A stretch of 64,000 nucleotides of DNA from an uncultured Actinomycetota bacterium (lineage in GTDB: Bacteria > Actinomycetota > Actinomycetes > JAFAQI01): the NCBI GenBank assembly GCA_963770565.1, contig CAVYQE010000002.1, forward strand, positions 96,001 through 160,000, written 5' to 3'. Position 1 is the first letter of the stretch. The number at the start of each line of letters is the position of its first letter. Below, piece by piece: positions 10,028 through 64,000 of this stretch. Under the pieces are notes generated by a model. It saw only the letters and a list, made by a program, of their open reading frames with translations. It had not been told where the DNA came from and made no database searches. A program made the translations under genes and the position numbers.

Positions 10028-10137
10028 TCCTCAAACCTTGCCACGGCTAGCGGCATGCGTCACGAGACCAGGTCTCCGCGGTCGGCTGGGCCAGGTCGGC
10101 CGCCCCCACGGGTAGCTTCGTCCGGGTTCATCTGTCC

Positions 10138-34931: not shown

Positions 34932-36422
34932 CTAGGCGACTAGTTCGGCTTGGCGAAGGACGTCGTATACGCGGGCGGCGTAGTTTCCGAAGCTGTCGTT
35001 GAGGGCGGTGCGGACTTCGGTGTATTCCTCTTCGTTGAGTGGCGGTGGCTGCGGGAAGAGATCGACCGGATCGCGTGGGTCGGTCCGGTCCGGTGGGTCG
35101 GGCGGGTCGACGAGGTCGGGCGGGTCTGTCTGGTCGGGTGGGTCGGGCAGGTCGATCGGGTAGGTGGCCGGAGGCCGGCGGTATTGGAAGCCGAGCGCGG
35201 AGGTGAACACCTCGGTCCCGTCGGGCTCGATATCGACTCGCCATGCTTTGCGGGTCTTGATGTCGTGATGCATCGGGCACATCAGGTGCAGGTTCGCTTC
35301 GTCGGTCCCGCCCAGCGGCCACGCGACCCGATGGTCGATGTCGCAGCTGGTCGCGCGCCGGGAGCAGCCGATGTGACGGCAGGTCCGATCCCGCGCCTCG
35401 ATCAGCCGTCGAAGCCCGGCCGACGGGCGGTAGCGGTCGCGGCCCAGGTCGAGCATCCGGCCATCGAGGGGATCTGTGACCAGTCGCCGCAGCCACGCCT
35501 GTTTCGACAGCTCTCGCGCGTACTCGGCGGTGATCGGGCCGTAGCCGGAGAGCTCACCAGGACGCTGGGTGAGCCCGAGCAGGGTGGTCAGGTCGACGGT
35601 GACCACGGTCTCGACGACCGGTCGCCGGGCTGCGTCGCTGCCGAGCACCAAATCGGCGAGGGCATCCATCCGACGGTGCCCAATCGGGCGGGTGTCGCCT
35701 TCCCGCCCGAGCTCGGCCGCGCGGATCTCAATCGCATCGCTGACCCGGAGCACCTGCCCGGCGGCGCCGACCGCGACAAGGCTCGCGGTGTCGTCCACCC
35801 CCGGATACAAGCGAACGTCGGCGTCGGCCTTCGCTGCCGCGGCGCGATCCGCGGCCGCCACCGGATCAAGGGCCATCAGCGCCTTCACCGCTGCCCGCAT
35901 CAGCTGAGTCGGGGTCCACCCGCGAAGGATCGCCGTAGGCAGCACGCGGCTCTCGACAGCCGCGGCGACCCGCGGTGTCGCGACGCCCACCACCCTGGCC
36001 AATGCCTTGAGATGGGCCAGGCTGATCTCGCCGCGGTCGAGCGCAACCCAGGACGCCGGCAGTTGCTCTGCGACCTGGTCAGCCAATGCCACCCGCGCCA
36101 GCGAGGTCGAGTACGGCATGCTCGACATCGCAGCCAACTCGTGCCCGATCAACCGTGACGCATCAACACCGAAGCCCTCGGCAAGCAGGTCGGCAGAATT
36201 GACCGCCTCAACCGTCGGGATCATCGACTGCGCCTCGCAATGCGCCGCGAACCGCAACCACAACACGGTCGCCCGGACCGCACCCGCACTATCCATCGGG
36301 GTGGCCCGCAGCGCGACCAGACCGGCATACAACCCGACCCCGACCGCCAGCTGCTCGAGCTCGTCCAGCTTCACCGCGGCCCGCGCGTACAGCACCTGGT
36401 TCGTCGGGTGGATCGGCTCCAT
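34932..36422 (-). CDS. DUF222 + HNH endonuclease (13E12/Rv1128c-like family)
   Basis: RRMDALADL, LSGYGPI, RRLVTDP, RDRTCRHIGC...DIDHRVAW..GGTDEANLHLMCPMHHDIKT; DPPD-repeat tail. Confidence 0.9.
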   Translation of the reverse strand: MEPIHPTNQVLYARAAVKLDELEQLAVGVGLYAGLVALRATPMDSAGAVRATVLWLRFAAHCEAQSMIPTVEAVNSADLLAEGFGVDASRLIGHELAAMSSMPYSTSLARVALADQVAEQLPASWVALDRGEISLAHLKALARVVGVATPRVAAAVESRVLPTAILRGWTPTQLMRAAVKALMALDPVAAADRAAAAKADADVRLYPGVDDTASLVAVGAAGQVLRVSDAIEIRAAELGREGDTRPIGHRRMDALADLVLGSDAARRPVVETVVTVDLTTLLGLTQRPGELSGYGPITAEYARELSKQAWLRRLVTDPLDGRMLDLGRDRYRPSAGLRRLIEARDRTCRHIGCSRRATSCDIDHRVAWPLGGTDEANLHLMCPMHHDIKTRKAWRVDIEPDGTEVFTSALGFQYRRPPATYPIDLPDPPDQTDPPDLVDPPDPPDRTDPRDPVDLFPQPPPLNEEEYTEVRTALNDSFGNYAARVYDVLRQAELVA

Positions 36423-36425
36423 CAC

Positions 36426-36441
36426 TCGAACATACGTTCGA
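36426..36441. promoter_or_regulatory. LexA (SOS) box
   Basis: TCGAACATACGTTCGA matches the actinobacterial consensus TCGAAC-N4-GTTCGA; 3 bp upstream of the DUF222-HNH ATG. Confidence 0.92.
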
Positions 36442-36489
36442 CCCGAGAACGCGTCAAGACCGCATCCACAACCTGTCGATGGCATCGGA

Positions 36490-38370
36490 TCACCGAGGCC
36501 GGCGGACCCCTCCAACGCCGATCAACGACGCCAGGAGCGCCTGCGTTTCAGGGTCAACCGAGTGGACGACTGTGCCGACCATGCCACGCGTCAGCAAGAC
36601 CTTGTACACGTTGCGAAGCAGGGCATGCGCCTGCTCAGGCGGCACGCCCCGAAGTGCTGGATCCTTCGACCCTTGCGGCTGCACGACCCACCGATCCTTG
36701 CGCCACACCAGATCCGGCCCGAAGATCACGCCGTTCCAGTCGTACTCGAAGCCTTGTGCCGTGTAGATGCAGCCGACTTGTCCGAAGCCAGCCGGGTCGG
36801 TCGCCCACAGACTGGCCGGCGGGTAACCGCCTACGCTTCGATCACCTCGCAGATTCCACGGATGTCGCCACGCACCGATGACAACGTCATCCACAAGCGT
36901 GCCGTCGGGTCGAGGGTCGCTCCACGGCCAGCAGAAACCAGCCGTCATTCGCGCACCGTAGGCCTCGGCCGTCTTCGACTGCAGCAGTTGTTCGAGCTCA
37001 GGCGGGGACTGGACAAGGCGCACGTCGAAATAGGTGTCGCCTGCCCATGAGATCGGCCCGCCGGGCTCGAGTCCGAGCAGGCGAAGCACCCACTCCTCAT
37101 AAGCACGCGACCCGCCACAGCGAAACTGCGCGTCGAGCGAGACCTCGACGACCTGCAGACCAAGTTCGTCGGCCTGGTCCCTAATGAGCCTCGGCGTACC
37201 CGTCTCCCCAGGCCGGACGACCTGGTGTTCGTCGAGCATGAACACGGGCACGCGCGCCGCGTCGATAAGTTCGCGGACCTGGGCTTTACCCGTGCGCATT
37301 TCTGCCCGGGTGTAGCGGTTCGCTGAGGTCTCGCGCATCCGGTGTGCCTCATCGCAGATCAGCACGTCGAACCCATTGCGCTCGGCTGCCATGAAACTGT
37401 TGAAGTACTTGAACAACGCCTTCACTCGGGGGTTGCGATGACCCGCCACCTTGCGCAGGGTCTCGGTGAAGGACTTCGACCCCGTCGCGTGCATTGCCGA
37501 GCGGCCCTGCCGCCACAGCTCGCCAAGCAACGACAGCGCGATGACGCTCTTGCCTGATCCGGGCCCGCCGGTGATGAGAACGATCTGCTTGGCATCCGAC
37601 GCCCGAGCGTGCTCGACCGCAGTGAGGACGAGACGGTACGCAACCTGCTGCTCATCGAGGAGGGTGAACTGCTCCCTCATCTGAACCTCGTCCGCCGCCA
37701 CCTTGAGCAGTTGGCGGCTCGGCGCCACCTTGCTCGAGAGGAGAAGATCCGCTGCTTCTGCCCCGGGATCGGGCGCGAGTCGCGATTGGAGGAACTCCAG
37801 AAAGTCGCCTCGCCGCTCACGGGTGAAGAGCCGGCCGTACGTGTCCTCGGGCAGTGCCCGCAGGCTGCTGATCCCGAACTCGGTGGCGTTGTGCAGGTAC
37901 GCCGCTCCGGCGACCGGGTCGACTGCCTCCGCCCATGCGCCGGTGAAGTCGGCGAGGAACGAACAGTAGCGGCGTACTTGTTCAGCGGGGTGGAGAACGG
38001 GGTGCCGGCCGTATGCCTCGATGTAACACAGGTCGTCGGCATCCTCGTGACCCTCGGCCTGGCTCCACTGCTTGAGCTCAACGAGGACATAGGACGGCGC
38101 ACCGGTCTTCGGATGCACCCCTGCGAGGAGCGCGTCGACCCGCTTGCTTGACAGCGGCAACTGGAACTCTGCCAGCACCTCGATCTGGCTCAGCCCGGCG
38201 TCGTGAAGATCGTCGGCGAGCACGGGAAGGCTCCGCTCCCAGGATCGCACCTCGGACTCCGCCGCCCTGCGTCCGAGCGCGAACGCGTACTGCTCCGAGA
38301 GATGCTGTGCCAATCGCCCTGCCTGAGCCTCCGACCGCAGCGACTCGGCCGACGCGCGGAACAGAAGCAC
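36490..38370 (-). CDS. DUF2075 (Schlafen group-3-like SF1 helicase) with an N-terminal PD-(D/E)xK-like nuclease domain
   Basis: EFQLP..SKRVD...LVELKQW; Walker A GGPGSGKS; Walker B LICDEAH; QFRCGGS, GCIYTAQGFEYD, YKVLLTRG. Confidence 0.88.
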   Translation of the reverse strand: MLLFRASAESLRSEAQAGRLAQHLSEQYAFALGRRAAESEVRSWERSLPVLADDLHDAGLSQIEVLAEFQLPLSSKRVDALLAGVHPKTGAPSYVLVELKQWSQAEGHEDADDLCYIEAYGRHPVLHPAEQVRRYCSFLADFTGAWAEAVDPVAGAAYLHNATEFGISSLRALPEDTYGRLFTRERRGDFLEFLQSRLAPDPGAEAADLLLSSKVAPSRQLLKVAADEVQMREQFTLLDEQQVAYRLVLTAVEHARASDAKQIVLITGGPGSGKSVIALSLLGELWRQGRSAMHATGSKSFTETLRKVAGHRNPRVKALFKYFNSFMAAERNGFDVLICDEAHRMRETSANRYTRAEMRTGKAQVRELIDAARVPVFMLDEHQVVRPGETGTPRLIRDQADELGLQVVEVSLDAQFRCGGSRAYEEWVLRLLGLEPGGPISWAGDTYFDVRLVQSPPELEQLLQSKTAEAYGARMTAGFCWPWSDPRPDGTLVDDVVIGAWRHPWNLRGDRSVGGYPPASLWATDPAGFGQVGCIYTAQGFEYDWNGVIFGPDLVWRKDRWVVQPQGSKDPALRGVPPEQAHALLRNVYKVLLTRGMVGTVVHSVDPETQALLASLIGVGGVRRPR

Positions 38371-38550
38371 CGGACTCCCCAGGCAGCACGAACCAGTCGC
38401 GCGGGTGGGGGCATGTCCGGCAAGGAAGCCCGTCGGGCCGCAGTGCGAGCAACCTTATCCACTGGGACCGAGCCATCCACAGATGTTGCACGGGCCGCCG
38501 CCGGCTCGCGTCTCCCAGGCGAACCTGCAGAGGTCGTGGTCGTTGCAGCT

Positions 38551-38931: not shown

Positions 38932-39012
38932 CCGCCCCAGTTCGCCGTAGGGGATGACAAGTCGCCGCTGACGAGGTGGGATGGCGGCGCAATCCGTCGA
39001 GATGGGGCACGG

Positions 39013-40407
39013 GTGAGACGTCAATCGGTTGTCGTGGTTGTTGCGTCCGGTTTGGCCGTGGGGGCCGGTCTCGCGGTTGCGCCTATGGCACAGGCCTCCG
39101 GCGGCGCTACGAGGCTGCCGCACTACGTGACGAACGAACTCGTGTCGAGCAAGTCGAGGCCTAGCGGTTACCTGGGAGCTGACGTAGCCATCTCCGGCAG
39201 GACCGTGGTGGTGGATGCCTACGGAACGCGGGTTCACGGGCACCCCGACGCAGGGGCGGTCTACGTCTACATCCGTTCCAAGTCGGGCAAGGGCAGGCTG
39301 ACCCAGCGGGCCGTGATCTCCACACCAGGGGTAGGGGCCGACGAGGACGTCGGCCCGGTCGCCGTGTCGGGAGACACCATCGTCGTCGGAGCACCGTCTG
39401 CCACGGTCGGCGCAACGAGCGAGGCCGGCGCGGCGTACGTGTTCGAGAAGCCGGCATCGGGATGGAGGAGCACCTCGCATCCGACCGCGACGCTTTCGCT
39501 CGGAACTGCCGTCATCGGAGCACATGTCGGGGCGAGCGTCGCGATCAGCGGAAGCACGATCGTCGTCGGCGCACCGGACCAGACGATCGGTGCCAACACC
39601 AACCAGGGTGCCGTTCTCGCGTACACCAAACCAGCCCACGGATGGGTGAACTCCAGCACACCGGCCGTGCTGACCTCGGCTTCCGGGAAGGGAGACGACT
39701 ATCTCGGAGAGTCGGTGGCGATCGCCGGCGGCACCGTCGTCGGAGGCGCCCCTGGCCGCGAGATCGGCGGACAGAACGACACCGGCATGGCGGACGTGTT
39801 CGTCAAGCCGCATAGCGGTGGCTGGGCGACGAAAACCGACACTCGGGAGCTCGCTCCAAAGACCGCCGTCGCCGACCTGAACTTCGGTACGGCGGTCGCG
39901 GTCTCGGGTAGGCACGCCGCCGTGGCCGCCGAGGGTCGCGCTGACCCTTCCAGCCTCGTCCGTCCCGCAGTCTTCGAGTTCAACGAGCCCACCGCCGGCT
40001 GGGGTACGGGAGTCGGCCCACCGCTGCATCCGAGAGCGAAGCTCACCGCGTCCCATGGAGGGCCCTATGACTCGTTCGGGCAGTCGATCGCGATCTCGAG
40101 TTCCATGATCGTTGCCGGAGCGCCGGATGCCTCGCTCGATCGCAAGTACGAATCCGGGGCGGTGTATCTGTTCGACAAGCCCAAGAAGGGCTGGCGCAAC
40201 GCCACGCAGTCCGGCCAGTTCATAGCGGCGAACACCGAGCGATGGGACTCGTTCGGCTACTCCGTGGCGTTGAGCGGCACGACGATCGTGGCCGGCGCGC
40301 CGTACTCGGACTTCACCGGAGTTCACAACTCCAACGACCGCGGGACCGCGTACGTCTTCTCCCAGCAGTTCCAGCACCACCGGTCCAAGATCGAGCCGGC
40401 GAGATGA
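39013..40407 (+). CDS. Secreted FG-GAP (integrin-alpha-like) beta-propeller protein
   Basis: Signal peptide; repeated (F/L)GxSVAISGxTIVVGAP...GAVYVF units. Confidence 0.88.
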   Translation: MRRQSVVVVVASGLAVGAGLAVAPMAQASGGATRLPHYVTNELVSSKSRPSGYLGADVAISGRTVVVDAYGTRVHGHPDAGAVYVYIRSKSGKGRLTQRAVISTPGVGADEDVGPVAVSGDTIVVGAPSATVGATSEAGAAYVFEKPASGWRSTSHPTATLSLGTAVIGAHVGASVAISGSTIVVGAPDQTIGANTNQGAVLAYTKPAHGWVNSSTPAVLTSASGKGDDYLGESVAIAGGTVVGGAPGREIGGQNDTGMADVFVKPHSGGWATKTDTRELAPKTAVADLNFGTAVAVSGRHAAVAAEGRADPSSLVRPAVFEFNEPTAGWGTGVGPPLHPRAKLTASHGGPYDSFGQSIAISSSMIVAGAPDASLDRKYESGAVYLFDKPKKGWRNATQSGQFIAANTERWDSFGYSVALSGTTIVAGAPYSDFTGVHNSNDRGTAYVFSQQFQHHRSKIEPAR

Positions 40408-42062
40408 CCAGCAGCGCGCGAGCGGTCTCGAGCCGCTTGATCACCTCGTCCGCGATCGCGATCGTCGCCTGCGCCGCCGCGCTGCTACCAGCCTCGACCG
40501 CCACGGCGGGTGGGCACGTCGGAAAGACCTGGGCCGAGGCGACCATGCGATCCGGCGCCGCCCATCCGAGCACCGATCTCGGCTATCCGGTCGCGATCTC
40601 CGGCAACACGATGGTGGTCGGCGCAGCGGGCACCGTCGTCGGGCCCGACGGTGGCGGTCAGGGCGCGGTCTACGTCTACACCAGGCCGAAGTCAGGCGTG
40701 TGGGCCGACGCGACGCCGACGGCAGTGCTGACGGTTGCCGGCTCGCCACCGAGCGAGGAAGCCGACGGTCTCGGCACCGGCGTTGCGATCGAGGGCAACA
40801 CGATCGTTGCCGGGGATAGCGCAGCCGGCAAGGATCAGGCCGGCGCTGTCTACATCTTCAACAAGCCACGGCACGGATGGCGCACCACCTCCCATCCGTC
40901 CGCCGTGCTGACGGCGAGCTCAACCAGCGACATCGGTGTGTTGGGCGGGTCGGTTGCGATTCATGGCGCCACCATCGTCGCCTCAGCGTTGTCCGGGGAC
41001 TACCCGGCGGCAGTGGTGTTCACCCGGCCGGCCTCCGGATGGGCGGACGAACATGAGACCGCCGACCTGGTCAACAGCACAGCCACGGGCTTCGATGCTC
41101 TCCTGCCGGTCGGGGTGTCAGCCGACACGATTGTGGTCGGCGGCCTGTTCGATGAGGAGGCGTGGGTGTTCGCGAAGCCGCCAACCGGGTGGGCGACGAC
41201 GACGACCCCGACTCAGGAACTTACCGAGAGCCACGCCGGCGATGTCCCACCGGACGGCTTCGGTTACACGGTCGCCGTGGACGGCTCGACGGTGGCGGTC
41301 GGCGCCCCCGGCGACCTGTTCTTCGACCAGCCACCGAGCAAGGGCGCGGTCTACCTCTACACGGAGCCGGCCGGCGGATGGGGGTCAGTGGCATCTCCGA
41401 TGTACGACACTCTGAAACTGCAATCGACGCATGAGCCCAAGGGCGACTCTTTCGGCGGCAGCGTCGCGCTCTCGGGACCGAGGCTCGCCGTCGGCGCCCC
41501 GACTCATGTCCTGGGACAGCATGACTCGGCCGGTGAGGGGTACGTCTTCCACACCATCGACAACTGGGCTCACGGCAAGCAGGTCGTCTCTCTGCCGGAT
41601 CCGAACGGTGGCCCGTACGACGAGCTCGGATGGTCGACCGCCATCAGCGGATCCTCGGTGGTGTTCGGTGCCGAATACGCCTACAAGTCCGCGGGTGCCG
41701 CCGATGTCTACACGGCCATGGCGAAGCCGACATTGTCGAAGCTGTCGCAGTCGCACCATTCCTGGCGGCTCGGGACCCGCAAGCCGTCGGTAAACCCAAG
41801 GCACGCCCCCAAGGGAGGGACCCAGTTCACCTTCCGGCTCAACGAGCCGGCCACCGTGACGCTGACGTTCACCTCCTCGGGCGCCAAAGCCCTGAGGTTG
41901 AGAGTCGCCGCCAGGACCGGCCTGAACAACGTGTACGTCGATGGACCGATCACCAAGCACAGCGGGTTGCTTCCCGGTCACTACACGGTGACGGCGCGGG
42001 CCAAGAACGCGGCGAGCGCGAAGTCATCATCGGAGAAGCTGCACTTCGTCGACGCTGACTAG
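40404..42062 (+). CDS. Secreted FG-GAP beta-propeller protein with a C-terminal beta-sandwich domain
   Basis: ATGA overlap with the paralog; signal peptide; FG-GAP repeats; FTFRLNEPATVTLTF...LPGHYTVTARA tail. Confidence 0.88.
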   Translation: MTSSARAVSSRLITSSAIAIVACAAALLPASTATAGGHVGKTWAEATMRSGAAHPSTDLGYPVAISGNTMVVGAAGTVVGPDGGGQGAVYVYTRPKSGVWADATPTAVLTVAGSPPSEEADGLGTGVAIEGNTIVAGDSAAGKDQAGAVYIFNKPRHGWRTTSHPSAVLTASSTSDIGVLGGSVAIHGATIVASALSGDYPAAVVFTRPASGWADEHETADLVNSTATGFDALLPVGVSADTIVVGGLFDEEAWVFAKPPTGWATTTTPTQELTESHAGDVPPDGFGYTVAVDGSTVAVGAPGDLFFDQPPSKGAVYLYTEPAGGWGSVASPMYDTLKLQSTHEPKGDSFGGSVALSGPRLAVGAPTHVLGQHDSAGEGYVFHTIDNWAHGKQVVSLPDPNGGPYDELGWSTAISGSSVVFGAEYAYKSAGAADVYTAMAKPTLSKLSQSHHSWRLGTRKPSVNPRHAPKGGTQFTFRLNEPATVTLTFTSSGAKALRLRVAARTGLNNVYVDGPITKHSGLLPGHYTVTARAKNAASAKSSSEKLHFVDAD

Positions 42063-49650: not shown

Positions 49651-49986
49651 GTGCCACACAACGCGCGACCAGTGCATGAGGCGAAGGCGAGCCTGTTCCG
49701 GGTGCTAGGCCATCCCGCCCGGATCCGGATCTTGGAGCTGCTTGGTGAGGGTGAGCGATCCGTGGGGGCGTTGCAGGCGGATCTCGGTTTGGATTCCGGT
49801 GGGACGTCGCAGCATTTGGCGGCGTTGCGGCGGGTCGGGGTGGTGCAGTCGCGCCGCGAGGGGACGACCGTGTTCTACCGGGTCGATGACAAGCGGGTGT
49901 TTGATCTGCTCGCTACCGGCCGCGACATCATCACCCGGCGACTCGGTGAGCAGCAGTCGCTGCTGAAGGACCTCGCCAAGTCGTGA
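49651..49986 (+). CDS. ArsR/SmtB regulator, Rv0081-like
   Basis: KASLFRVLGHPARIRILELL..GERSVG...SQHLAALRRVGVV.SRREG; first gene of the hyf/ehr operon. Confidence 0.9.
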   Translation: MPHNARPVHEAKASLFRVLGHPARIRILELLGEGERSVGALQADLGLDSGGTSQHLAALRRVGVVQSRREGTTVFYRVDDKRVFDLLATGRDIITRRLGEQQSLLKDLAKS

Positions 49987-51932
49987 TTGCCGCGCTGTAT
50001 CTCGTCGCCGTCTTCGTGGTCGTGTTTGGTGGGCTGCTGACGCTCGCGCCGGTTCAGTGGCGCCTGGGTCTGGGGGTGCAGGCTGCGGGTGCGGCACTGC
50101 TGGTGGTGGCAGGGCTCGCGACGCTGGTGACCGGGCACACCGTGGGCGCACCGTTCGCGAGCGAGCTTGCGCCGCGTCTGGGTGTCGATCGGCTCTCAGG
50201 TTTGTTCGTTGCCACGCTCGGGTTGGTTGCTGCACCGGTGGCCGTGTATTCGGCGCGTTATCTGGATGGTTCGCCTCGCGATCGTCTTGTGGGGGCTCTG
50301 ACCGGTGGATTCGTGCTGGCGATGGCGGGGGTGCTGTGTGCCCGTGACCCGGTCACGTTGCTCGGCGGCTGGGAGCTGATGACGTTGCTGCCGGCAGTCA
50401 TCATCCTGATCGCTCGCTCGGCGGATCCACACTCACGGCGGACGGTGTTCACCTATCTGGCGATCACTCACCTGGGTGGGGTGGGGACCTGGGTCGCGGT
50501 GCTGCTGCTGGCGGATGCGGGTGCGCTCGGTGGGTCGGGTGTGATCGCGCCGGGCTCGGCGTTGCAGATCGGGATCGCGCTGGCCGCGCTGGTCGGGATG
50601 GGCACGAAGGCGGGTGTCGTGCCGTTGCATGCCTGGCTGCCGCGGGCACATCCGATCGCGCCTGCGCCTGTGTCGGCGTTGATGAGCGGTGTGATGATCA
50701 AGGTCGCGATCTACGCGATGATCCGGGTGTTCATCGACTGGCTCGGGGTGCTCCCGCTGTGGTTCGGGGTCCTGGTCCTCGGTGTCGGCGCGGTGTCCGC
50801 TCTCGGTGGGGTCACCTACGCGCTGTTCAGTCATGAGCTCAAGCGGCTGCTCGCGCTGCATTCGATCGAGAACGTCGGCATCATCGTGCTCGGGCTCGGC
50901 GCCTGTCTGGTGCTGCGAGCCCGGGGGGAGGACACCTGGGCGGCGCTGGCGCTGGCGGCGGCACTGCTGCACACCGTGAACCACGCAGTGTTCAAGGCGT
51001 TGTTGTTCCTCGGCGCCGGATCGATCGAGCGCGCGACGGGATCACTCGAGCTCGACCGCCTCGGTGGGCTGCTACGCCGGATGCCGTGGACCGGGGGCGC
51101 GTTCTTCGTCGGGGCGATGGCGATCAGCGGGCTCCCGCCGTTCAACGGGTTCGCCTCGGAGTGGCTGACACTGCAAGCGCTGCTGCACGTCCCGATGTCC
51201 GGTCATGCCGACGACGGCGTGGCCGGCGCCCTCGCGCTTGCCGCGCTCGGCGGGACCGCCGCCCTGGCGGTGTTCTGCTTCGTAAAGGTGGTCGGGCTGG
51301 TCCTGCTGGGTCCGCCGCGACGCGCCGCGGCCCGCGACGCGCACGAGGTCGCGGTCTCGATGCGGGCAGCGATGGTGGGTCTGGCGGCGGCATGTGTGGT
51401 GCTCGGCGTCGTGCCGGGTCTACTGGTGAGCCGGCTGGTCGCGGTCGCTCCGTGGCCCGTGCATCTCGTGGGTCATCCCGGCCTGTCCGTGCCGGGCACA
51501 GGATCGTTGCCAACCGTGGCCATCGCCGTCGTCCTGGTTGCGGTCACCGCCGGGCTCATTGGCTTACGTGGCCGGCGAGTGGCTGCGCCCGCCGCGACCT
51601 GGGTGTGCGGGCAGCCGGTGGTCGCGCAGCTGAACTGGTCGAGCGCGGGGTTCAGCAAACCGCTGCGGCTGGTGCTGGAGTCCGTGCTGCGCCCGCGCCG
51701 GGAGATTGAGGTACTCACCTCGTCCGCCGGCATCGTCACCGGCGTCTCGTATCACGGTGAGGTACCGAACCTGATCGACGAGCGGGTATACGGGCCGGTG
51801 GCCCGATGGTCACTGACTGGCGCAGCGTACGCGCGCCGGCTGCAGAGCGGAACCCTCGGGACCTACGTGGCGTACCTGATCGGCCTGGTCGTCGCGGTGC
51901 TGGTCGCCGGGCGGATCGGCTGGCTGGGATGA
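49983..51932 (+). CDS. hyfB: HyfB/HycC-like antiporter-type membrane subunit
   Basis: WELMTL, KAGVVPLHAWLPRAHPIAPAPVSALMSGVMIK, KRLLALHSIEN, GLPPFNGFASEW. Confidence 0.88.
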   Translation: MIAALYLVAVFVVVFGGLLTLAPVQWRLGLGVQAAGAALLVVAGLATLVTGHTVGAPFASELAPRLGVDRLSGLFVATLGLVAAPVAVYSARYLDGSPRDRLVGALTGGFVLAMAGVLCARDPVTLLGGWELMTLLPAVIILIARSADPHSRRTVFTYLAITHLGGVGTWVAVLLLADAGALGGSGVIAPGSALQIGIALAALVGMGTKAGVVPLHAWLPRAHPIAPAPVSALMSGVMIKVAIYAMIRVFIDWLGVLPLWFGVLVLGVGAVSALGGVTYALFSHELKRLLALHSIENVGIIVLGLGACLVLRARGEDTWAALALAAALLHTVNHAVFKALLFLGAGSIERATGSLELDRLGGLLRRMPWTGGAFFVGAMAISGLPPFNGFASEWLTLQALLHVPMSGHADDGVAGALALAALGGTAALAVFCFVKVVGLVLLGPPRRAAARDAHEVAVSMRAAMVGLAAACVVLGVVPGLLVSRLVAVAPWPVHLVGHPGLSVPGTGSLPTVAIAVVLVAVTAGLIGLRGRRVAAPAATWVCGQPVVAQLNWSSAGFSKPLRLVLESVLRPRREIEVLTSSAGIVTGVSYHGEVPNLIDERVYGPVARWSLTGAAYARRLQSGTLGTYVAYLIGLVVAVLVAGRIGWLG

Positions 51933-52853
51933 CCGCGGCGAACGTCGCGAGCGGCGCGGTCGAGCTTCTCGGCGGCATCGCGGTTGCGCCGCTGCTGCCG
52001 GGTCTTGATCCAGCACTGGAAGGCGAGGCTGCAGGGCCGGCGCGGACCCTCGCCGGTTCAGCCCTACCGGGAGCTACGACGGCTCTGGCGCAAGAGCGTC
52101 GTCGACGTCGCGGGCACCACCGCGGTCTACCGGCTGGTACCGGCCGTCGTCGCGGCCAGCTGTCTCGCCGCAATCGCGGTGGTGCCGGTCACTGCGGCCG
52201 CTCCAGACCTCGGTCTCGGTCATGACCTGATCACGGTCGTTGGCCTGCTGGCGTTGGCCCGGTTCGCTGCCGCGGCCGGCACCTGGGACGCCTCGAACGG
52301 GTTCGCATTGATGGGAGCGAGCCGTGACCTCACGCTGTCGGTGTTCGTCGAGGCGGCGTTGCTGCTGGCGCTCGCGGTCGTCGCCGTACTGGCCAGGACC
52401 ACGAACCTGGTGGGGATGGTCGCGGCCAGCGCTGGTGGCGGGGTGTGGTCGAGCCCGGCCCTGCCGCTCGGCGCGGTCGCGTTCGCGATCGTGGTCGTCG
52501 CCGAGACCGGCCGGCAGCCCTTCGACAACCCCGACACCCATCTCGAGCTGACCATGATCCATGAAGGCCCGCTGCTGGAGTACGCGGGCCGTGACCTCGC
52601 CTATCTGCAGTGGTCAGCCGCCGTGCGGCACTGGCTGGTTCTGGTGCTCGCCGCACAGCTGTTCGTGCCGCATCCGAGGAACGTCTGGTGGCAGCTCGGG
52701 TTGCTGCCGGTCGTGCTCGTGGTGCTGTGCGGCGCGCTGGCGCTGGTCGAGACGGTACAGGTGAAGATGCGGATCTTGGCCGCCCCGCGGCTACTCGCGG
52801 TCGCCGCGGTGGCTGCAGTTCTCGGTGTGGCCGGTCAGGCCGGTGGCTGGTGA
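51929..52853 (+). CDS. hycD: HyfC/HycD (NuoH-like) membrane subunit with one frameshift near 52004
   Basis: ATG 51929 gives MTAANVA...APLLPG; the +1 frame continues LIQHWKARLQGRRGP, ETGRQPFDNPDTHLELTMIHE. Confidence 0.8.
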
Positions 52854-53461
52854 CTGGCGCTGCGGGGTGGCTGCTCGTCGCGCTCGGGCTCGGCGTGGTC
52901 GTGGTACGCCGACGGTCGGTCGCGGTCGGATTGGTCACGGTGCAGGCGCTGGTGGTCGCTGTGACTGCGCTGGTCGACTCCGCTTCGACGAGTGAGGTGG
53001 TCGCCGGGCTGACCCTCGCCGTGCGGGCGGTCGCGCTCGGCGTGCTGTTCCTGCTCGCGGTCTCCCGCAGCCGGGAAGCTCAACCGGTGCGCGCCCGGGT
53101 GCCACCCACGGTCCGGGTGGGCATCGCCGTGGTGCTCATGCTGGTGCTGACCGAGTTGGTGCCGGCGTACGGGCTCACCTCACGCTCGGCCGAGCGATCG
53201 GTGCTCGCGCTGGTCGCAGCGGGTCTGGTGTGCGCCGCGACCAGGCGGGCCACGCTGTTCCAGGTACTCGGGATCGTGGTGGTTGACAACGGGTTGGCGC
53301 TGGCCGCCGTCACCTCGCCGCACACCTCGTCGCTGGTAATCGAGCTCGGGGTGACCCTCGACCTCACCCTGATCGTCTGTGTCGCCGCCCTGTTCCACCT
53401 CCGGATCTTCACCGAGTTCGGCGCCGGCGACAGCGCAGCAATGCGGAGACTGCGTGACTAG
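52850..53461 (+). CDS. hyfE: HyfE-like membrane subunit
   Basis: Multi-TM; QVLGIVVVDNG, IELGVTLD; GTGA coupling with the upstream gene. Confidence 0.8.
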   Translation: MTGAAGWLLVALGLGVVVVRRRSVAVGLVTVQALVVAVTALVDSASTSEVVAGLTLAVRAVALGVLFLLAVSRSREAQPVRARVPPTVRVGIAVVLMLVLTELVPAYGLTSRSAERSVLALVAAGLVCAATRRATLFQVLGIVVVDNGLALAAVTSPHTSSLVIELGVTLDLTLIVCVAALFHLRIFTEFGAGDSAAMRRLRD

Positions 53462-54917
53462 CACCCAAACGCTGGCCGTGACGGTTGTGGCAGTCCCGCT
53501 CGCCACGGCGGCGCTCGTCGGGCTGGTCCCAGTGAGTCGGCTCCGCATGGTCGCGCGGGTCGGCGCGGTCGCGACCTCGATCCTCGCGCTGACCCTGGCC
53601 GGTCTCGCCGGGCACGCCGCCGCCCGTCCGGTCACCGGGCGGTGGATCGTCATCGACGCCGCCGGTGCACTTCTCCTCGCCGTAGTGGCTGTCGTCGGTC
53701 TAGCGAGCGTGCTGACCTCGTCGTCCTACCTGAGCAGCGCGGGTGGGTCGTTGGTCGCCGAGCACCGTCGCGACCGGGTGTACTACCTGGTCTTGCTGGT
53801 GTTCTGGGCGATCCTGCTGGCGGTGCCACTGGCCGGCAACCTCGGAGCGGCGTGGCTGCTGATCGAGGCAACCACCGCCGCGTCAGCGATGCTGGTCGGG
53901 TTCAGCGGGAAGGCTCACGCGCTTGAGGCGGGCTGGAAATACCTGATCCTCACCTCGCTCGGGCTCGGTGTCGCGCTGCTCGGGATCGCGATCCTCGCCG
54001 CCGGCGACCATAGCGGTGGGATCGACGGGCTGGCCTGGGCCCGGCTCGCGACGGTCGGGTCCGGGCGTTCGGTGATCCTGACGGCCTACCTGCTGGTGAT
54101 GGTCGGACTGGCCACCAAGATCGGATGGGCACCGGTGCACAACTGGCTGCCCGACGCCCACTCCGAGGCGCCACCACCAGTCTCCGCGCTGCTGTCCGCC
54201 GCTCTGCTCCCGACCGTCCTGCTGGTTGCCTGGCGAACCGAGCACGCGTTGGCACCGGTACTCGGAATCCATGCCGCGCAACGGGTCCTGATCGGGTTCG
54301 GGCTGGTCTCGCTTGCGGTCGCGGTGCCGTTCCTGTGGCGGCCGATGCCGTTCAAGCGGCTGCTCGCCTACTCCAGCCTGGAACACCTCGGGGTCATGGC
54401 GCTCGGGATCGGGTTCGGCACCCCGCTCGCGCTGACCGGGGTCGCCGTACACATCGCCGGTCACGCGGTCGCCAAATCGCTCGGCTTCTACGCCGCCACC
54501 CCGCTGCTCAGCCACGAGCCCCGCGCCGCCCGGCACGCCGTCAGCGGGATCGGACGCACCTCGCCCGCGCTCGGCGCCACCATCGGCATCTCTCTCGGGG
54601 CGCTGTCCGGGCTACCGCCCTCACCGCTGTTCGTCAGCGAGGTGCTGATCCTCGCCGGCGGAGTCGCCTCCGGCCGGCCGTGGCCCGCCGCCATCGCCGC
54701 AGTGCTGCTTGCGCTGGGGTTCCTCGGACTCGCGCACGCCGGCATCGACACCGTCGCCGGCCGCCCACACCGCCGGCGGCACCGCGCGCCGACCGGCCTG
54801 CGCGCGGTCACCGTCCTCGCCGGCGCATCGCTTGTCCTGCTGGCCGGGCTCGCCGCGGCGGCACCCTGGCTGTCCGGCGGTAGCTTCGTCGCCGCTCTCG
54901 TCCGGGGCGTGCCATGA
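53454..54917 (+). CDS. hyfF: HyfF-like antiporter-type membrane subunit
   Basis: IEATT, LEAGWKY, TKIGWAPVHNWLPDAHSEAPPPVSALLS, KRLLAYSSLEH. Confidence 0.88.
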   Translation: MTSTQTLAVTVVAVPLATAALVGLVPVSRLRMVARVGAVATSILALTLAGLAGHAAARPVTGRWIVIDAAGALLLAVVAVVGLASVLTSSSYLSSAGGSLVAEHRRDRVYYLVLLVFWAILLAVPLAGNLGAAWLLIEATTAASAMLVGFSGKAHALEAGWKYLILTSLGLGVALLGIAILAAGDHSGGIDGLAWARLATVGSGRSVILTAYLLVMVGLATKIGWAPVHNWLPDAHSEAPPPVSALLSAALLPTVLLVAWRTEHALAPVLGIHAAQRVLIGFGLVSLAVAVPFLWRPMPFKRLLAYSSLEHLGVMALGIGFGTPLALTGVAVHIAGHAVAKSLGFYAATPLLSHEPRAARHAVSGIGRTSPALGATIGISLGALSGLPPSPLFVSEVLILAGGVASGRPWPAAIAAVLLALGFLGLAHAGIDTVAGRPHRRRHRAPTGLRAVTVLAGASLVLLAGLAAAAPWLSGGSFVAALVRGVP

Positions 54918-56323
54918 CAGCCGCCCCGCTTACTGGCGCCGAGTACCGCGCCGAGGTCGAGACCGCCCTCGACGACGGATGGCGGCCCCGGAGCCTGTAC
55001 GCGACCGAAGGCGGACGGCTGATCCGCCTGCTGCTGACCGGGCCCGACGGTCAGACCCGGCTTTCCACCGTCGAGGTCGACCCTGACCGGGGTGTCCCGT
55101 CAATCGTCGACCTGGCGCCGGCGATGGGCTGGGACGAACGGGAAGCCCATGACCTCTACCGGGTGCAGTTCGCCGGTCATGAACCGATCCGGCCGTTGGT
55201 CGACCACACTGCGGCGCTGGACGCATGGACTGTGCCGGTCCGTGGGCGTGACCCCTATCAGGTTGCGGTCGGCCCCATCCACGCCGGGGTGATCGAGTCC
55301 GGGCACTTCCGGTTCCATGTCGTCGGCGACCGGATCCTGCATCTGGACGCCCAACTGTTCTACAAACACCGCGGCCTCGAACGCGCCGCGGAAGGGCTGA
55401 CCGCAACCGCGGCGCTCCCCGTCGTCGCGCGGGCCTGCGCCGCGTGCACCGTCGCGAACAGCGTCGCGTTCGCCACCGCGACTGAAAACAGCCTCGGACT
55501 TCGAGGCACCGACGAGCTCACCCGGGCACGGACCCTGCTTCTCGAACTGGAGCGAGTATGGAACCACCTCAACGACATCGCCGCGATCTGCGCCGGAACC
55601 GGGATGGCCGCCGGCAACAGCTACTTCCTCGCCCTCACCGAACGCGCCCGGGCACTCAACGCCCGAGTCACCGGCCACCGGTTCCTGTTCGGTGCGGTCC
55701 AGATCGGAGCCAGCGACTTGCATCTCGACCCCGACACCCACCGGATGTGTGCGCAGGAACTGGACGCGATGCGTGTCGCCGCGGACGCCGGCTGGCGTGA
55801 CCTTGAGTTCAATACTTCCTTCCAGGACCGGCTCGACAAGATCGGGATCATTGATGCGGCCAGCGCGCACCGGCTCGGCGTGGTCGGCCCAGCCGCCCGC
55901 GCCGCCGGCGTCGCCGACGACGCCCGGGCCACCTCCACGTACCCCGCCTATGCCGACCTGGTCCCGGTCACCGCAGCGATCGCGACCGGTGACGTGAATG
56001 CCCGGGCCACCCAGCGGATCCTCGAGCTCCGACAATCATTCGACCTGATCACGGCGGTGCTCACACACGGACCGATCACCCCCAGCATCGCCGCCAACGA
56101 CAACGGCCCCACTCCGATCGGAGCCGGAATGACCGAAAGCCCACGCGGCGCCACCAGCTGCATCTGCGAATACACCAACCACAAACTGCAGCGAGTGCAC
56201 CTACGGACCGGCTCCTACGCCAACTGGCCGGCCGTTGCGCACGCCGCCACCGGCAACCTGCTCCCCGACTTCCCGCTGATCAACAAGAGCTTCGAGCTCT
56301 GCTACGCCTGTGCGGACCGCTGA
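54914..56323 (+). CDS. hycE: HycE/HyfG-like (NuoC-D fused) large subunit with both CxxC motifs
   Basis: WDEREAHDL, GPIHAGVIESGHFRF, HRGLE, RACAAC, ELERVWNHL, ESPRG, SYANW, DFPLINKSFELCYACADR*. Confidence 0.88.
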   Translation: MTAAPLTGAEYRAEVETALDDGWRPRSLYATEGGRLIRLLLTGPDGQTRLSTVEVDPDRGVPSIVDLAPAMGWDEREAHDLYRVQFAGHEPIRPLVDHTAALDAWTVPVRGRDPYQVAVGPIHAGVIESGHFRFHVVGDRILHLDAQLFYKHRGLERAAEGLTATAALPVVARACAACTVANSVAFATATENSLGLRGTDELTRARTLLLELERVWNHLNDIAAICAGTGMAAGNSYFLALTERARALNARVTGHRFLFGAVQIGASDLHLDPDTHRMCAQELDAMRVAADAGWRDLEFNTSFQDRLDKIGIIDAASAHRLGVVGPAARAAGVADDARATSTYPAYADLVPVTAAIATGDVNARATQRILELRQSFDLITAVLTHGPITPSIAANDNGPTPIGAGMTESPRGATSCICEYTNHKLQRVHLRTGSYANWPAVAHAATGNLLPDFPLINKSFELCYACADR

Positions 56324-56796
56324 TGTTCACCCTGCTCCGCGACCTCCGACAGCTTCGACGACACCTCGACCTGCCCCGCCCCGACCGTGGCCGCAGCCTC
56401 GCGATCCGCCACGTCGACGCCGGATCATGCAACGGCTGCGAACACGAACTCTCCCTTACCGCCGGCCCGCACCACGACCTGCAACGCTTCGGCCTCGGGA
56501 TCGTCGCCTCACCCCGACACGCCGACCTCCTGCTCGTCACCGGCACCGTCACCACCCGGATGCACCAAGCGCTACTCACTGCCCACCAAGCAATGCCCGA
56601 ACCACGCCGCGTCGCCGCCCTCGGCAACTGCGCCCTCGGCATCAACGTCTACGCCCAGCCCGGCACCCTCATCGGACCCGTCGCCGACATCCTGCCCGTC
56701 GACCTCACCATCCCCGGTTGCCCACCCACACCCCAGCAGATCGCGGAAGGATTACTCACCCTTCTCGACCGAGACCGCTCGGGTGCCTCCCGCTAA
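56323..56796 (+). CDS. HycG/HyfI (NuoB-like) Fe-S small subunit
   Basis: GSCNGCE, SPRHAD, GNCA, IPGCPP. Confidence 0.9.
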   Translation: MFTLLRDLRQLRRHLDLPRPDRGRSLAIRHVDAGSCNGCEHELSLTAGPHHDLQRFGLGIVASPRHADLLLVTGTVTTRMHQALLTAHQAMPEPRRVAALGNCALGINVYAQPGTLIGPVADILPVDLTIPGCPPTPQQIAEGLLTLLDRDRSGASR

Positions 56797-60124: not shown

Positions 60125-61976
60125 TCAGATGGCCGCCGTTGACTGCGAAGCGGCTAATGACGAGCACGCCTCCGGCCGGGCATCAGCGGTGTTAGGTGAT
60201 TGGAGCCGGCTGCTGTAGGTCTGCAGGATGTCGTGGTGGTTGACCCACCCGACGAGTCGAAAGCCGTCGCTGGACACCACTGGTACTCCGGTCGTGTCAC
60301 GGCCGATCAGCGTTTGGACCACTTCATGCAGTGACTGCGTCGCGCGCACGGTGGGCAGCGAGCGGGCCAAATCGCCCGCGGTCGCGTCGGCAGGGCCCTC
60401 CGCTAGCGATTGCTCCTAACTCCTGGGGGTCACCGTGCCGCGGTAGCGACCGTCGACATCGATCACCGGTAGCGCTTCGCGGGCCTCCGTCGGTGAAGCG
60501 CTTGACGATTTGCTCGAGCGGATCGGCTGAGGAGAGCGCGACCGGCACGGGCTGCATCGCGTCGCTGACGGTCAAAGTGCGCATCAGGTTCTCGGGTCGG
60601 CCGCGAGCGATGTCGATGCCTCGACGGCGCAGTTTGAGCGTGTAGATCGTGTCCTTGGACAGCCTGCCGCTGACGGCGGTCGCGAGCACGATCGCGACCA
60701 TCAGCGGCAGGACAATCGTGTAGTCGCCGGTGAGCTCGAAGATGATCAGCACCCCGGTGATCGGTGCACGGGTCGCGCCGGCGAACACCGCGCCCATCCC
60801 GACCAGGCCGTAAGCGCCGGCTGGACGCGGCAAGGTGCGGGCAGGACCTGATGCACACCGTCGCCGTAGGCGGTGCCGAGCATCGCTCCGATGAACAGCG
60901 ACGGGGCGAACACCCCGCCGGAGCCGCCGATGCCGATGGTGAGGCTGGTCGCGACCATCTTCCCGATCGAGCAACACGATCAGGAACCACACGACATAGT
61001 GGCCGGCGACGCCCGTTTTCCAGGATCGGGTAGCCGACGCCGTACATCTCCGGCAACGCCAGCATCAGACCGCCGAGCAGGACCCCGCCGGTGGCGGGCC
61101 GCAGCCATATCGGGCCGCGCCAGACCCGGTCGCAGATGTCCTCGATGCCGTAGAGCACCTCGGATGAACCCGACCCCACCGGCGGCTGCGAGCACCCCGA
61201 GAACGGCGTAGAAGGCGATACTCGACCGGCGGAGTGCACCGATGAACGGCGGGGAGCATCAGGAACGGATGGTTCCCGAAGGCGGCCCGGCCGATCACGT
61301 CGGCGGTAACCGAGGCAAGGACCACGGCGCCGAAGGACTCGGTCTCGAAATCACGCAAGATCAGCTCGAGGGCGAAGAACACCCCGGCGATCGGTGCGTT
61401 GAACGTCGCGGAGATTCCGCCAGCAGCACCGCAGGCGACCAGCAGCCGCAGCCGGGACTCCGGCACCCGCAACCACTGCCCGATGCTCGACCCGAGCGCG
61501 GACCCGATCTGCACGATCGGTCCTTCCCGTCCTACCGAACCTCCGGACCCGATGCACAGCGCGGAAGCCAGGGACTTCACGATCGCGACCTGCGGAGCGA
61601 TCCGCCCACCCCGTTCGGAGACGGCGAGCATCACCTCAGGCACACCGTGACCGCGGGCTTCCTTGGCGAACCGGTCCACGATCGGCCCGTAGATCAGCCC
61701 ACCGATCACCGGCACTAGCAGCACGAAGTAGATCCCCAACACGGGGAAATGCGGGCTCGCGACATGCCCCGCGTCGCTGTAGTCGGAACGCCCGGTGAAC
61801 ACCTCAGTGAACCCCAGGATCAGGTAGCGGAAGCCGACCGCGCCACCGCCGGCACCAGCCCCGGTCACCACGGCCAGCGCCATCAGACCAGCCGCCGAAC
61901 CGCGCAGCCAGTCCAGCACGCGGATCGCCGGCTCGCGTGGCAGTCGCAATGTCCCACCGTGCGCCGACACCCTCAT
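60125..61976 (-). pseudogene. ClC chloride/proton antiporter with CBS pair, split by multiple frameshifts
   Basis: [33 protein letters not shown] and CBS domains spread over at least six frame segments. Confidence 0.88.
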
Positions 61977-62004
61977 ACCGGCTCCGCGAGATGAGCACCC
62001 GTTG

Positions 62005-62493
62005 TCATTCCAGGCCCCAACCCAGCGACCACGCCTGCTCCGGAGCCTCACCGGCCGCCTGCGCGAACGCCGCGAGCGCCGCCACCAGACCTTGCTGCGC
62101 ACCGGGTGTCATCTTTCGCAGAATCGACCGGACCAGGCTCTTGCGCCGCCGCATCACCGCGGCCACAAGCTGACCGCCAGCCGGAGCGATCGTGACAATC
62201 ACAGTTCGCCGGTTGTCATCCGGACGATCCCGCGCGATCAGCCCTTTGCGGTCCAGCCGGTCACACATCCGAGTGACCGTCGACTGATTGACCCCCAACG
62301 CGACGGCCAACTCCGTCATCCGCTGCGGACCGCGCATCGCCAATACGACCAGCGCGCGGTACTGCGGAAGTGTCACCTCCTCCTCGGCCGCGGCAAGCGA
62401 CTTCGCCGCGACCGCGACCAGCGCACGGCTCGCGGCCAGGACGCCATCGACCACGTCGACCGGTTCTGTGACCTCGCTCGAGGAAGTATGCAC
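62005..62493 (-). CDS. MarR family regulator
   Basis: VTLPQYRALVVL...LAVALGVNQSTVTRMCDRLDRKGLI.R...DNRR. Confidence 0.92.
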   Translation of the reverse strand: MHTSSSEVTEPVDVVDGVLAASRALVAVAAKSLAAAEEEVTLPQYRALVVLAMRGPQRMTELAVALGVNQSTVTRMCDRLDRKGLIARDRPDDNRRTVIVTIAPAGGQLVAAVMRRRKSLVRSILRKMTPGAQQGLVAALAAFAQAAGEAPEQAWSLGWGLE

Positions 62494-62503
62494 CTAACGA
62501 TTA

Positions 62504-62516
62504 TTGCATAGTGCAA
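62504..62516. promoter_or_regulatory. Probable MarR operator
   Basis: TTGCA-TAG-TGCAA 10 bp upstream of the marR start. Confidence 0.55.
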
Positions 62517-62601
62517 GGGTTTTGGTGGCTGGTGAGCGTAGCGCCGGCGGCGCCCGACACGATCGAAGAGGCGGCCCTGGCCTTCGGCCTGGCCCTTGCG
62601 G

Positions 62602-64000
62602 TCAGGCGTGCGTCGCGGATGGCGGGTCGGGTGTGGGGTTGTGCCAGGTCCCGGGGTGCTCGATGAGGGCGTCGGCTTGGGTTGGCCCCCAGGTGCCCGG
62701 CTGGTAGCGGTGGGCCGGACGGGGGTGTTCGAGGACGGGATCGACGATGGCCCAGGCGGCTTCGACGGTGTCTTCGCGGGTGAACAACGCGCCTTCCCCT
62801 TCAGGGCGTCGCTGAGGAGCCGTTCGTAGGGTTGTTCTTCGTCCGGCTGCCCGTTGAGTAAGGACAGTTCGCGCTGGTCGCCGAGGAACTGCTCGCCGGC
62901 CCGTTTGACCCGGGCGGCGAGCGCGATCACCGGGTTGGGTGAGAGTCGGAACCGTAGATAGTTGGCGCGGCCTTGTGCGGGGGCGGCGTCGGCGAACAGC
63001 GGTTGGGGTGGGGGTTTGAGCTCGACGAGGACCTCTGCGGCGGTCTGCGCCAAGCACTTTCCGGACCGCAGGTACCACGGCACACCGGCCCAGCGCCAAG
63101 AGTCGATGAACAGCCGTAGCGCGCAGAAGGTCTCAACGTCGGAGTCTTTCGCGACTCCGGGCTCGTCGCGGTATCCCGCGAACTGGCCGCGGACCACGTC
63201 GTCGGAGCTCCAGCGGTCGGATCGCCTTGAAGACGTTGAGCTTCTCCCCCTGCACAGCACCGAAGCCCTGGTAGGCCGGGGGTTCCATCGCGAGCAGCGC
63301 GACGATCTGGAACAGATGATTCTCGATCACGTCACGAAGGGCGCCAGCGGTCTCATAGAACGCACCCCGCCCCTGCACCCCGAATCCCTCGGCGACGGTG
63401 ATCTGGACGCTGGCGACATAGTTGCGGTTCCAGATCGGTTCGAGGAAGGAGTTAGCGAAGCGGAAGTACAGGAGGTTCATGATCTCCTCCTTGCCGAGGT
63501 AGTGATCGATGCGGAAGATCGCAGGCTCCGGGAACGCCGCGCGCACCACCCGGTTGAGCTCGCATGCAGAGGCGAGATCCCGCCCGAACGGCTTCTCGAC
63601 CACGACCCGCGCATCGCGGTTCAGGCCCGCCCCTTCGACCCCCTCGATCACCGTCGCGAACAGGCCCGGCGGGGTGGCGAGGTAGTGCGCCGGACGACGC
63701 GCGGCGCCGAGCGCGCTTCGCAACGCGGTGAAGGTGGCCGGGTCCGCGTAGTCGCCGTCGACGTAGTCCAGCAGCGACAGCAACCGGTCAAGAGCGGCGC
63801 TGTCATCGATGCCATCGCCTGACTCAGCGACGGCTATCTCGGGCGTGCTCGCGAAGCCGCGGCAGGTCCCACCGGGAGAACGCGACGCCGATCACCGGCA
63901 CGTCCAATGTGCCGCGCTTCACCATCCGGTAGAGCGCCGGGAAGATCATCTTATGGGCCAGGTCACCGGTCGCACCGAAGAAGACGAGCGCATCCGAGGC
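62602..64000 (-). pseudogene. zwf: Glucose-6-phosphate 1-dehydrogenase; start outside the window, at least three frameshifts
   Basis: [49 protein letters not shown] in successive frames (shifts near 63835, 63215, 62800). Confidence 0.88.

Follow-up and report, generated by a model that had tools for sequence, protein, structure and literature searches.

An operon for a probable [NiFe] energy-converting complex of the group 4f type, with an Rv0081-like regulator, in an uncultured actinobacterium

The operon at positions 49651–56796 of a 64 kb stretch of DNA from an uncultured Actinomycetota bacterium (GenBank assembly GCA_963770565.1, contig CAVYQE010000002.1, positions 96,001–160,000 of the forward strand; this whole stretch is referred to here as the window) is best read as the genes for a membrane-bound energy-converting complex with six subunits, of the HydDB group 4f type (‘Ehf’), together with an Rv0081-like repressor gene in front of them. 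We put the probability of this reading at roughly 0.6. The large subunit carries four cysteines at the positions of the [NiFe] ligands; judged from its sequence, the site is probably nickel–iron and hydrogenase activity is plausible.

The large subunit (54914–56323, + strand) is a protein of 469 residues in which a NuoC-like N-terminal part is fused to a NuoD/[NiFe] large-subunit fold. The cysteine codons at 55436, 55445, 56300 and 56309 encode Cys175, Cys178, Cys463 and Cys466, which align with C241, C244, C531 and C534 of Escherichia coli HycE, so that both CxxC motifs (L1 and L2) are complete. The motif RACAAC starts at residue 173, ESPRG at 408, SYANW at 434 and DFPLINKSF at 452. The protein terminates in ELCYACADR, directly followed by the stop codon and lacking a C-terminal extension, and its final Arg aligns with the last aligned residue of HycE in PDB entry 7z0s (chain E). 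An earlier reading of the same DNA, made without database searches (the sequence-only reading), had given these codons, RACAAC, ESPRG, SYANW and the missing extension, and all of them proved to be exact. The group 4 patterns quoted in an excerpt of PMC7886697 are C[GS][ILV]C[AGNS]xxH for L1 and [DE][PL]Cx[AGST]Cx[DE][RL] for L2, and ELCYACADR satisfies the latter. HycE (7z0s chain E) is both the top PDB sequence match of the large subunit (E = 3.6e-47) and the top Foldseek match of its AlphaFold2 model, with a template-modelling (TM) score of 0.78; the model itself has a pLDDT (predicted local distance difference test) of 78.3 and a pTM (predicted TM score) of 0.84. The HycE residues for catalysis and proton supply were taken as named in PMC9474812: by alignment, H188, E193, H284, R395, E437 and R478 have identical residues in the window protein, with Asn at S283 and Glu at D529.

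The family to which this protein belongs is large. Among 7,999 scored candidates, more than 4,800 are relatives of the large subunit with E < 1e-10. The best 120 homologues (61–100% identity, with the query counted in) all have RxCxxC and all end in ELCYxCxDR; four residues past the second L1 cysteine, 119 of them have Asn and one has Ser. A scan of GTDB using one genome per species gave at least 597 matching stretches, with at least 567 confirmed relatives, mostly from Gaiellales, Solirubrobacterales and other soil Actinomycetota. The best 80 were examined as loci; all are from Actinomycetota metagenome-assembled genomes (including Gaiellales, Solirubrobacterales, Thermoleophilia, Acidothermaceae, Streptosporangiaceae and Kineosporiaceae), with a top identity of 72% and with the window's own genome not among them. 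L011, L042 and L075 come from complete or nearly complete chromosomes of this sort, and a cultured bacterium, Capillimicrobium parvum (P0384), carries the family as well. L2 keeps its CxxC in all 80 loci and all four cysteines are found in 76; one of the remainder is a broken open reading frame (ORF) and the other three are described below. The order of the seven genes is identical in 57 of the 80 loci, and in most of the others the cassette is cut at a contig end or the two antiporter paralogues are confused; hyfE has a tblastn match in 77 loci. On these aligned sequences the retention of the four cysteines is far beyond chance. The window operon is an ordinary, typical member of the family, which adds nothing special of its own and which may be broken. 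Separately, in P0172, which represents one 50% cluster, the second L2 cysteine is replaced by Asp.

The gene set agrees with that predicted for group 4f. All seven genes of the operon lie on the + strand, in the order ArsR–HyfB–HycD–HyfE–HyfF–large–small, the set and the positions having been recognized correctly in the sequence-only reading according to Pfam and NCBIfam. The first gene (49651–49986) encodes the regulator, an Rv0081-like ArsR/SmtB-family protein without cysteine (Pfam HTH_5/HTH_20, NCBIfam HTH_metalloreg). It is followed by a HyfB-like antiporter-type membrane subunit of 649 residues with an ND3-like C-terminal part (49983–51932; Pfam Proton_antipo_M), a HycD/HyfC/NuoH-like membrane anchor that is broken by a one-base insertion (51929–52853; Pfam NADHdh), a HyfE-like small membrane subunit of 203 residues (52850–53461; NCBIfam hydrogenase 4 membrane subunit, E = 9e-10, below cut-off) and a HyfF-like antiporter-type membrane subunit of 487 residues (53454–54917; Pfam Proton_antipo_M). 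The large subunit is next, and a NuoB/HycG/MbhJ-like small subunit of 157 residues closes the operon (56323–56796; Pfam Oxidored_q6). The best NCBIfam models are hydrogenase 4 subunit B for the HyfB-like protein and the subunit F models for the HyfF-like protein, both below cut-off; every NCBIfam equivalog score for the operon proteins is in fact below its curated cut-off, and Pfam and NCBIfam agree on the families. The start and stop codons overlap at each junction: in order, GTGA (shared by the ArsR stop and the hyfB start), ATGA, GTGA (shared by the hycD stop and the GTG start of hyfE), an overlap of eight nucleotides, ATGA and TGATG. The translational coupling given in the sequence-only reading agrees with these overlaps; the frameshift in the HycD-like gene had been missed. 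A scan for promoters and terminators and a search for an inverted-repeat operator 5′ of the regulator gave nothing exceeding shuffled sequences.

The small subunit carries GSCNGCE, GNCA and GCPP, a CxxC…C…C arrangement that would provide the ligands for one [4Fe–4S] cluster. Its best PDB matches are MbhJ (6cfw chain J, E = 7.2e-32) and HycG (7z0s chain G, E = 2.5e-27), both ranked above the NuoB chains. The best solved relatives of the two subunits, HycE, MbhJ and HycG, are subunits of true hydrogenases, which supports the hydrogenase reading. In the membrane arm, the HyfB-like subunit conserves the residues aligned to E135, H222, K239, H328, H332, K336, E391 and C537 of HycC, and has a Lys aligned to HycC L208. 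E138, K222, H236, H333, H337, K341 and E396 of the HyfF-like subunit align with conserved channel residues, and the E-channel residues of the HycD-like subunit are conserved by alignment. The minimal group 4-like complex proposed in the sequence-only reading is supported: a fused NuoC/D-type large subunit and a CxxC-type small subunit go with a membrane arm of two antiporter-like subunits plus one NuoH-like and one HyfE-like subunit. The kinship of the regulator to Rv0081 was also confirmed, with Rv0081 as its best PDB match (6jmi chain A, E = 2.8e-24, residues 5–109). Rv0081 is described in bioRxiv 10.1101/465575 as having no metal site and no cysteine, and the window protein is likewise free of cysteine.

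HydDB describes group 4f as ‘Formate-coupled (putative), undetermined role’ and lists 23 references, all of them from Firmicutes. Its prediction for the group (supplement 2) is a complex of six subunits with a [NiFe] centre, one [4Fe4S] cluster, a NuoL-like subunit, a NuoH-like subunit and two antiporter subunits, and by Pfam and NCBIfam the window set of a large subunit, a small subunit with one cluster, NuoL-like, NuoH-like and two antiporter-type subunits matches it. The 4f reference from Desulfitobacterium hafniense (WP_015945149.1) shares with the window protein the four cysteines, the terminal DFPLINKSFELCYxCxDR, the absence of an extension and the fused NuoC-like N-terminus. The two differ at L1, where the window protein has RACAAC…N and 4f has R[IV]CG[AV]C…H, although Asn replaces the L1 His in five of the 23 HydDB references (Acetonema, two from Anaerovibrio, Phascolarctobacterium and Sporomusa). 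The window protein is ∼35–44% identical to the Cys/His representatives. The window family also differs from the 4f references in belonging to Actinomycetota rather than Firmicutes, in having an ArsR/Rv0081-like regulator attached and in having no conserved formate dehydrogenase neighbour, whereas 4f is annotated as putatively formate-coupled. We found no description of an actinobacterial 4f branch in the open-access literature searched, which is weak evidence that the branch is absent from print.

Phylogenetic analysis places the window family with the cysteine-bearing proteins. A search of a library clustered at 50% identity gave 4,202 proteins at E ≤ 0.001, and representatives were aligned with the faster settings of MAFFT. 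Three kinds of large subunit among them have the DFPL[IV]NKSF context and no extension: four cysteines with a canonical L1 (for example RICGVC..SH…ELCYSC.DR), four cysteines with Asn, which is the window type, and Cys-less (R.SGD……NLSY[AS]G.DL), which corresponds to Ehr. The first kind includes P0159, the first 70 residues of which are identical to those printed for D. hafniense WP_015945149.1. Three trees were calculated, a quick tree of 103 rows (representatives outside 430–575 residues or lacking aligned motif residues were dropped beforehand), a quick mixture-model tree of 54 rows and a careful tree of the same size (IQ-TREE, LG+C20+F+G4, rooted on E. coli NuoCD). The rows hold a single identified HydDB reference, P0159, and none from groups 4b–4i. 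All three trees gave the same topology. In the careful tree E. coli HycE and HyfG fall outside the superfamily (support 95/99). The Cys-less rows, 19 in all, are united in a clade of their own (94/96), and 28 of the 54 rows form a Cys-bearing clade (92/94) containing both P0159 and the window family. The family itself, 13 rows with support 100/100, is nested in a subclade of 19 rows (97/91) on a long stem of 0.89 changes per column. With HycE and HyfG as the outgroup the earliest branches bear cysteine, so that the cysteines look ancestral and the Cys-less Ehr proteins derived. By sequence, the window family thus falls in the Cys-bearing clade next to the 4f reference, a placement that is not decisive.

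The sequence-only reading had stated that the operon would lose its novelty if it nested, motifs included, inside a subgroup already described, for example 4f. Such nesting is largely what we find, since DFPLINKSF, the absence of an extension, the six subunits and the Asn in place of His all occur in 4f references; the tree is the point on which it is less firm, with p = 0.166 in the approximately unbiased (AU) test described below. DFPLINKSF had been taken as an Ehr-type context, but it is not peculiar to Ehr, as P0159 has it too. The CYxCxDR end and the Asn in place of His are present as noted, but neither is peculiar: the end fits the group 4 pattern of the PMC7886697 excerpt and the Asn is found in the five references named above.

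The nearest complexes outside the Cys-bearing clade are those termed Ehr. Excerpts of PMC6349859 and PMC10284858 define these by a large subunit without CxxC motifs, and PMC10284858 adds that Ehr is ‘phylogenetically close to the group 4f’ enzymes. Examples are Mycobacterium tuberculosis Rv0081–Rv0087, Geobacter GSU0739-45 and plasmid copies in Rhodococcus, Rhizobium and Azospirillum; the Geobacter subunits increase on formate according to an excerpt of PMC7894505. We saw the large subunits of the Rhodococcus, Rhizobium and Azospirillum plasmids to be Cys-less (R.SGD… and …SY[AS]G.DL), whereas the cysteine state of M. tuberculosis Rv0087 is taken from the literature. With the Rhodococcus plasmid protein as the query, Rhodococcus, Cellulomonas, Kribbella and Nocardioides were found, and no M. 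tuberculosis protein is among the 120 matches listed. Ehr has the same subunit set as the window and, like it, shows DFPL.NKSF, no C-terminal extension and conservation of the channel and second-sphere residues; the Rhizobium plasmid operon begins with a helix–turn–helix gene and repeats the order of all seven genes, and the M. tuberculosis regulator Rv0081 is homologous to that of the window. The Cys-less large subunits are ∼31–35% identical to that of the window and group apart from it in the tree. As the window large subunit has all four cysteines, it should not be filed as Ehr despite the equal subunit set. The position of the small subunit, which the sequence-only reading had passed over, also differs: it is last in the window and first in the Cys-less Rhodococcus plasmid operon and, presumably, in that of M. 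tuberculosis. As a side observation, bioRxiv 10.1101/2025.08.29.672306 describes the Methylocystis proteins that HydDB assigns to ‘group 4f’ with a motif that ends in AARVS and is similar to the Cys-less L1 region (R.SGD) of Ehr, so that some published 4f calls may be Ehr.

Compared with the group 4a enzymes, the window operon follows the order of E. coli hyfB-C-E-F-G-I but has no counterpart of hyfA, D, H or J. HycE, the best solved relative by both sequence and fold, has the catalytic Glu, the canopy Arg, the proton path and all four cysteines in common with the window protein. The window lacks HyfA/HycB, the HyfH/HycF ferredoxins, HyfD, HyfJ/HycH, FdhF, the HycI protease and the C-terminal extension, and its L2 motif opens with EL where E. 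coli Hyc/Hyf has DP. In NuoD of complex I the cysteine ligands are lost, whereas the window large subunit keeps all four and the window small subunit has CxxC (GSCNGCE).

A working model for the complex can be built from these features. A soluble low-potential donor, probably a ferredoxin-type carrier, would deliver electrons to the single [4Fe–4S] cluster of the small subunit, from which they would pass to the four-cysteine site of the large subunit, presumably NiFe(CN)2CO. Protons arriving via Glu128 of the β1–β2 loop would be reduced to H2 there, or the reaction would run in reverse. The HycD-like E-channel and the two antiporter-like subunits would couple the reaction to ion translocation, and the Rv0081-like repressor may place the operon under hypoxic control.

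Several results weigh against this assignment. A 2026 preprint calls group 4f ‘previously uncharacterised’, and no biochemical study of 4f or Ehr was found in the open-access literature searched. The L1 sequence CAACTVAN breaks the pattern of the PMC7886697 excerpt at positions 2, 3, 5 and 8, with both cysteines kept. The second-sphere residues aligned to HycE are also kept in the Cys-less Ehr proteins, so that they have no power to discriminate a hydrogenase from Ehr. AlphaFold2 confidence is low at residues 92–149 and 451–469, around the active-site loops. In three of the 80 loci (L055, L058 and L068) L1 is CxxD (RACGAD or RACAAD), with the L2 CxxC retained. The AU test keeps a tree that joins the window family with the Cys-less clade (p = 0.166, log-likelihood difference 19.8). 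No match to E. coli HypA–F, HycI, HycH, HycF, HycB or HydN was obtained by tblastn in any of 82 sequences (the window and L001–L081, with up to 10 kb on each side), whereas the positive controls, other Hyc subunits, were detected in 77–82 of the 82. When the 2,643 flanking ORFs were clustered, no neighbour outside the cassette was found in more than ten of the 80 loci. A frameshift in the HycD-like gene, taken up below, is a further point of this kind.

The Pfam scan of the 106 candidate ORFs of the window likewise found no hyp gene, formate dehydrogenase, carbon monoxide dehydrogenase, HycF/NuoI-type ferredoxin or maturation protease, in accordance with what the sequence-only reading had stated. 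With no recurrent neighbour and no hyp match nearby, there is neither a linked electron-input module nor a linked maturation system. Conserved neighbours were considered as electron donors and rejected, the clusters (in ten or fewer of the 80 loci) being of generic families, for example SDR, ABC ATPase, GNAT and aminotransferase. Genes of the hyp set are often unlinked, so that their absence near the operon is weak evidence.

One alternative is a redox-driven ion pump, Ehr-like and not a hydrogenase, in which the cysteines would bind another metal or cluster or serve a thiol function and no NiFe(CN)2CO would be formed. We consider it rather unlikely. The lack of hyp genes in the window and within 10 kb of the 80 related operons speaks for such a pump, as do the atypical L1, with Ala-Ala between the cysteines and Asn in place of His, and the three CxxD variants. 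In the careful tree the cysteines have been lost in at least two lineages while the whole complex and its channel residues were kept, and the related M. tuberculosis complex is regarded in an excerpt of PMC6728331 as a non-functional hydrogenase, its maturation genes being missing. One loss lies inside the window family itself: the small and rare lineage of P0129 (P0129 and P0276–P0279; P0129 is 50% identical to the query) has lost three of the four cysteines, so that ligand loss recurs even within the window clade. The same lineage can be counted for a hydrogenase, as it keeps just one cysteine of the four, and within the family the lost cysteines therefore go together. Against the pump, a real metal site predicts just what is seen, four cysteines at the exact positions of the [NiFe] ligands in 120/120 homologues and 76/80 loci; moreover, L2 has the canonical group 4 form, the closest relatives with cysteines are hydrogenases already in the catalogue and unlinked hyp genes are common. 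A group 4f-type complex is thus the reading that we prefer.

The HycD-like gene of this genome is, as assembled, frameshifted. It begins at the ATG at 51929, within the ATGA shared with the hyfB stop; after codon 26 the reading frame switches to that of the ORF 51984–52853. Compared at the DNA level with two relatives, L002 and L011, the window has one T too many near 52004–52005, within a TT run. The window contains two other interrupted genes, one for a CLC chloride channel (60327–62108, − strand) and one for glucose-6-phosphate dehydrogenase (62376–63891, − strand), each of which is split into two ORFs. The three interruptions could have arisen either from indel errors in the assembly or from gene decay, and function in this genome depends on whether the extra base is real. 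That the operon is a decaying or inactive copy, its anchor subunit frameshifted after codon 26, appears improbable: the extra base does divide hycD into two frames and the other two broken genes are in keeping with decay, but the other six genes of the operon are intact with overlaps at all junctions, the hycD break comes down to one base within a TT run and three indel-type breaks in 64 kb would also fit assembly errors.

The least probable alternative, and a very improbable one, places the operon between Ehr and Hyc/Hyf as an evolutionary intermediate, as the sequence-only reading had suggested from the DFPLINKSF context joined to a CYxCxDR end, or makes it an Ehr with a reacquired hydrogenase C-terminus. 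The gene order, which equals E. coli hyfB-C-E-F-G-I without hyfA, D, H and J, might point the same way. Against it, DFPLINKSF followed by ELCYxCxDR is normal in Cys-bearing members, the 4f reference P0159 among them; HycE and HyfG branch outside the superfamily as a whole (95/99), the earliest branches are Cys-bearing, and the family falls in the Cys-bearing clade, if not decisively so.

The surroundings of the operon give no direct support for the suggestion that it is the cargo of an island. No tRNA was found in the window and no integrase or transposase adjoins the operon, the GC content of which is 0.700 compared with 0.668 and 0.659 in the flanks. None of the five window genes flanking the operon recurs in any of the 80 loci, and the neighbourhood of the cassette differs in all of the relatives. 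The M. tuberculosis hyc locus is listed as horizontally acquired in an excerpt of PMC3087520; together with the differing neighbourhoods this makes portability of the cassette plausible, while an island in the window is not shown. About 11 kb upstream of the operon, at 34935–38454 (− strand), a DUF222-family gene lies beside a gene for a Schlafen-group-3-like DNA/RNA helicase, a pair that may be mobile or defence-related. At 38932–42059 (+ strand) two overlapping ORFs both have FG-GAP_2 repeats, and they represent either a pair of paralogues or a further gene that a frameshift has split. The region 4515–10030 groups the genes for a mycolic-acid cyclopropane-synthase-family methyltransferase, an MMPL transporter and an acyl-AMP ligase, consistent with an actinomycete that has a complex lipid envelope.

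The window operon is a member of the catalogued 4f lineage, and the actinobacterial branch of this lineage is large, conserved, annotated and unstudied. A bolder view, which is possible but which we hold only tentatively, is that the actinobacterial clade with four cysteines and Asn is a distinct and very widespread subgroup of energy-converting [NiFe] enzymes (at least 567 GTDB stretches) that has no dedicated ferredoxin or formate dehydrogenase module, takes electrons directly from soluble carriers and is under Rv0081-type control, with the Cys-less Ehr complexes, including the mycobacterial one, as its degenerate descendants. If this were true, largely aerobic soil bacteria would use it to dispose of reductant as H2, or to conserve energy, when depleted of oxygen. 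Group 4f is among the few [NiFe] subgroups without biochemical data, and its Cys-less sister Ehr complexes, including the hypoxia-induced Rv0082–Rv0087 of M. tuberculosis, have no known function. As the Cys-bearing branch is abundant in soil Actinomycetota and comes with the same Rv0081-like regulator, it would offer a tractable, non-pathogenic entry to a minimal complex I-like machine.

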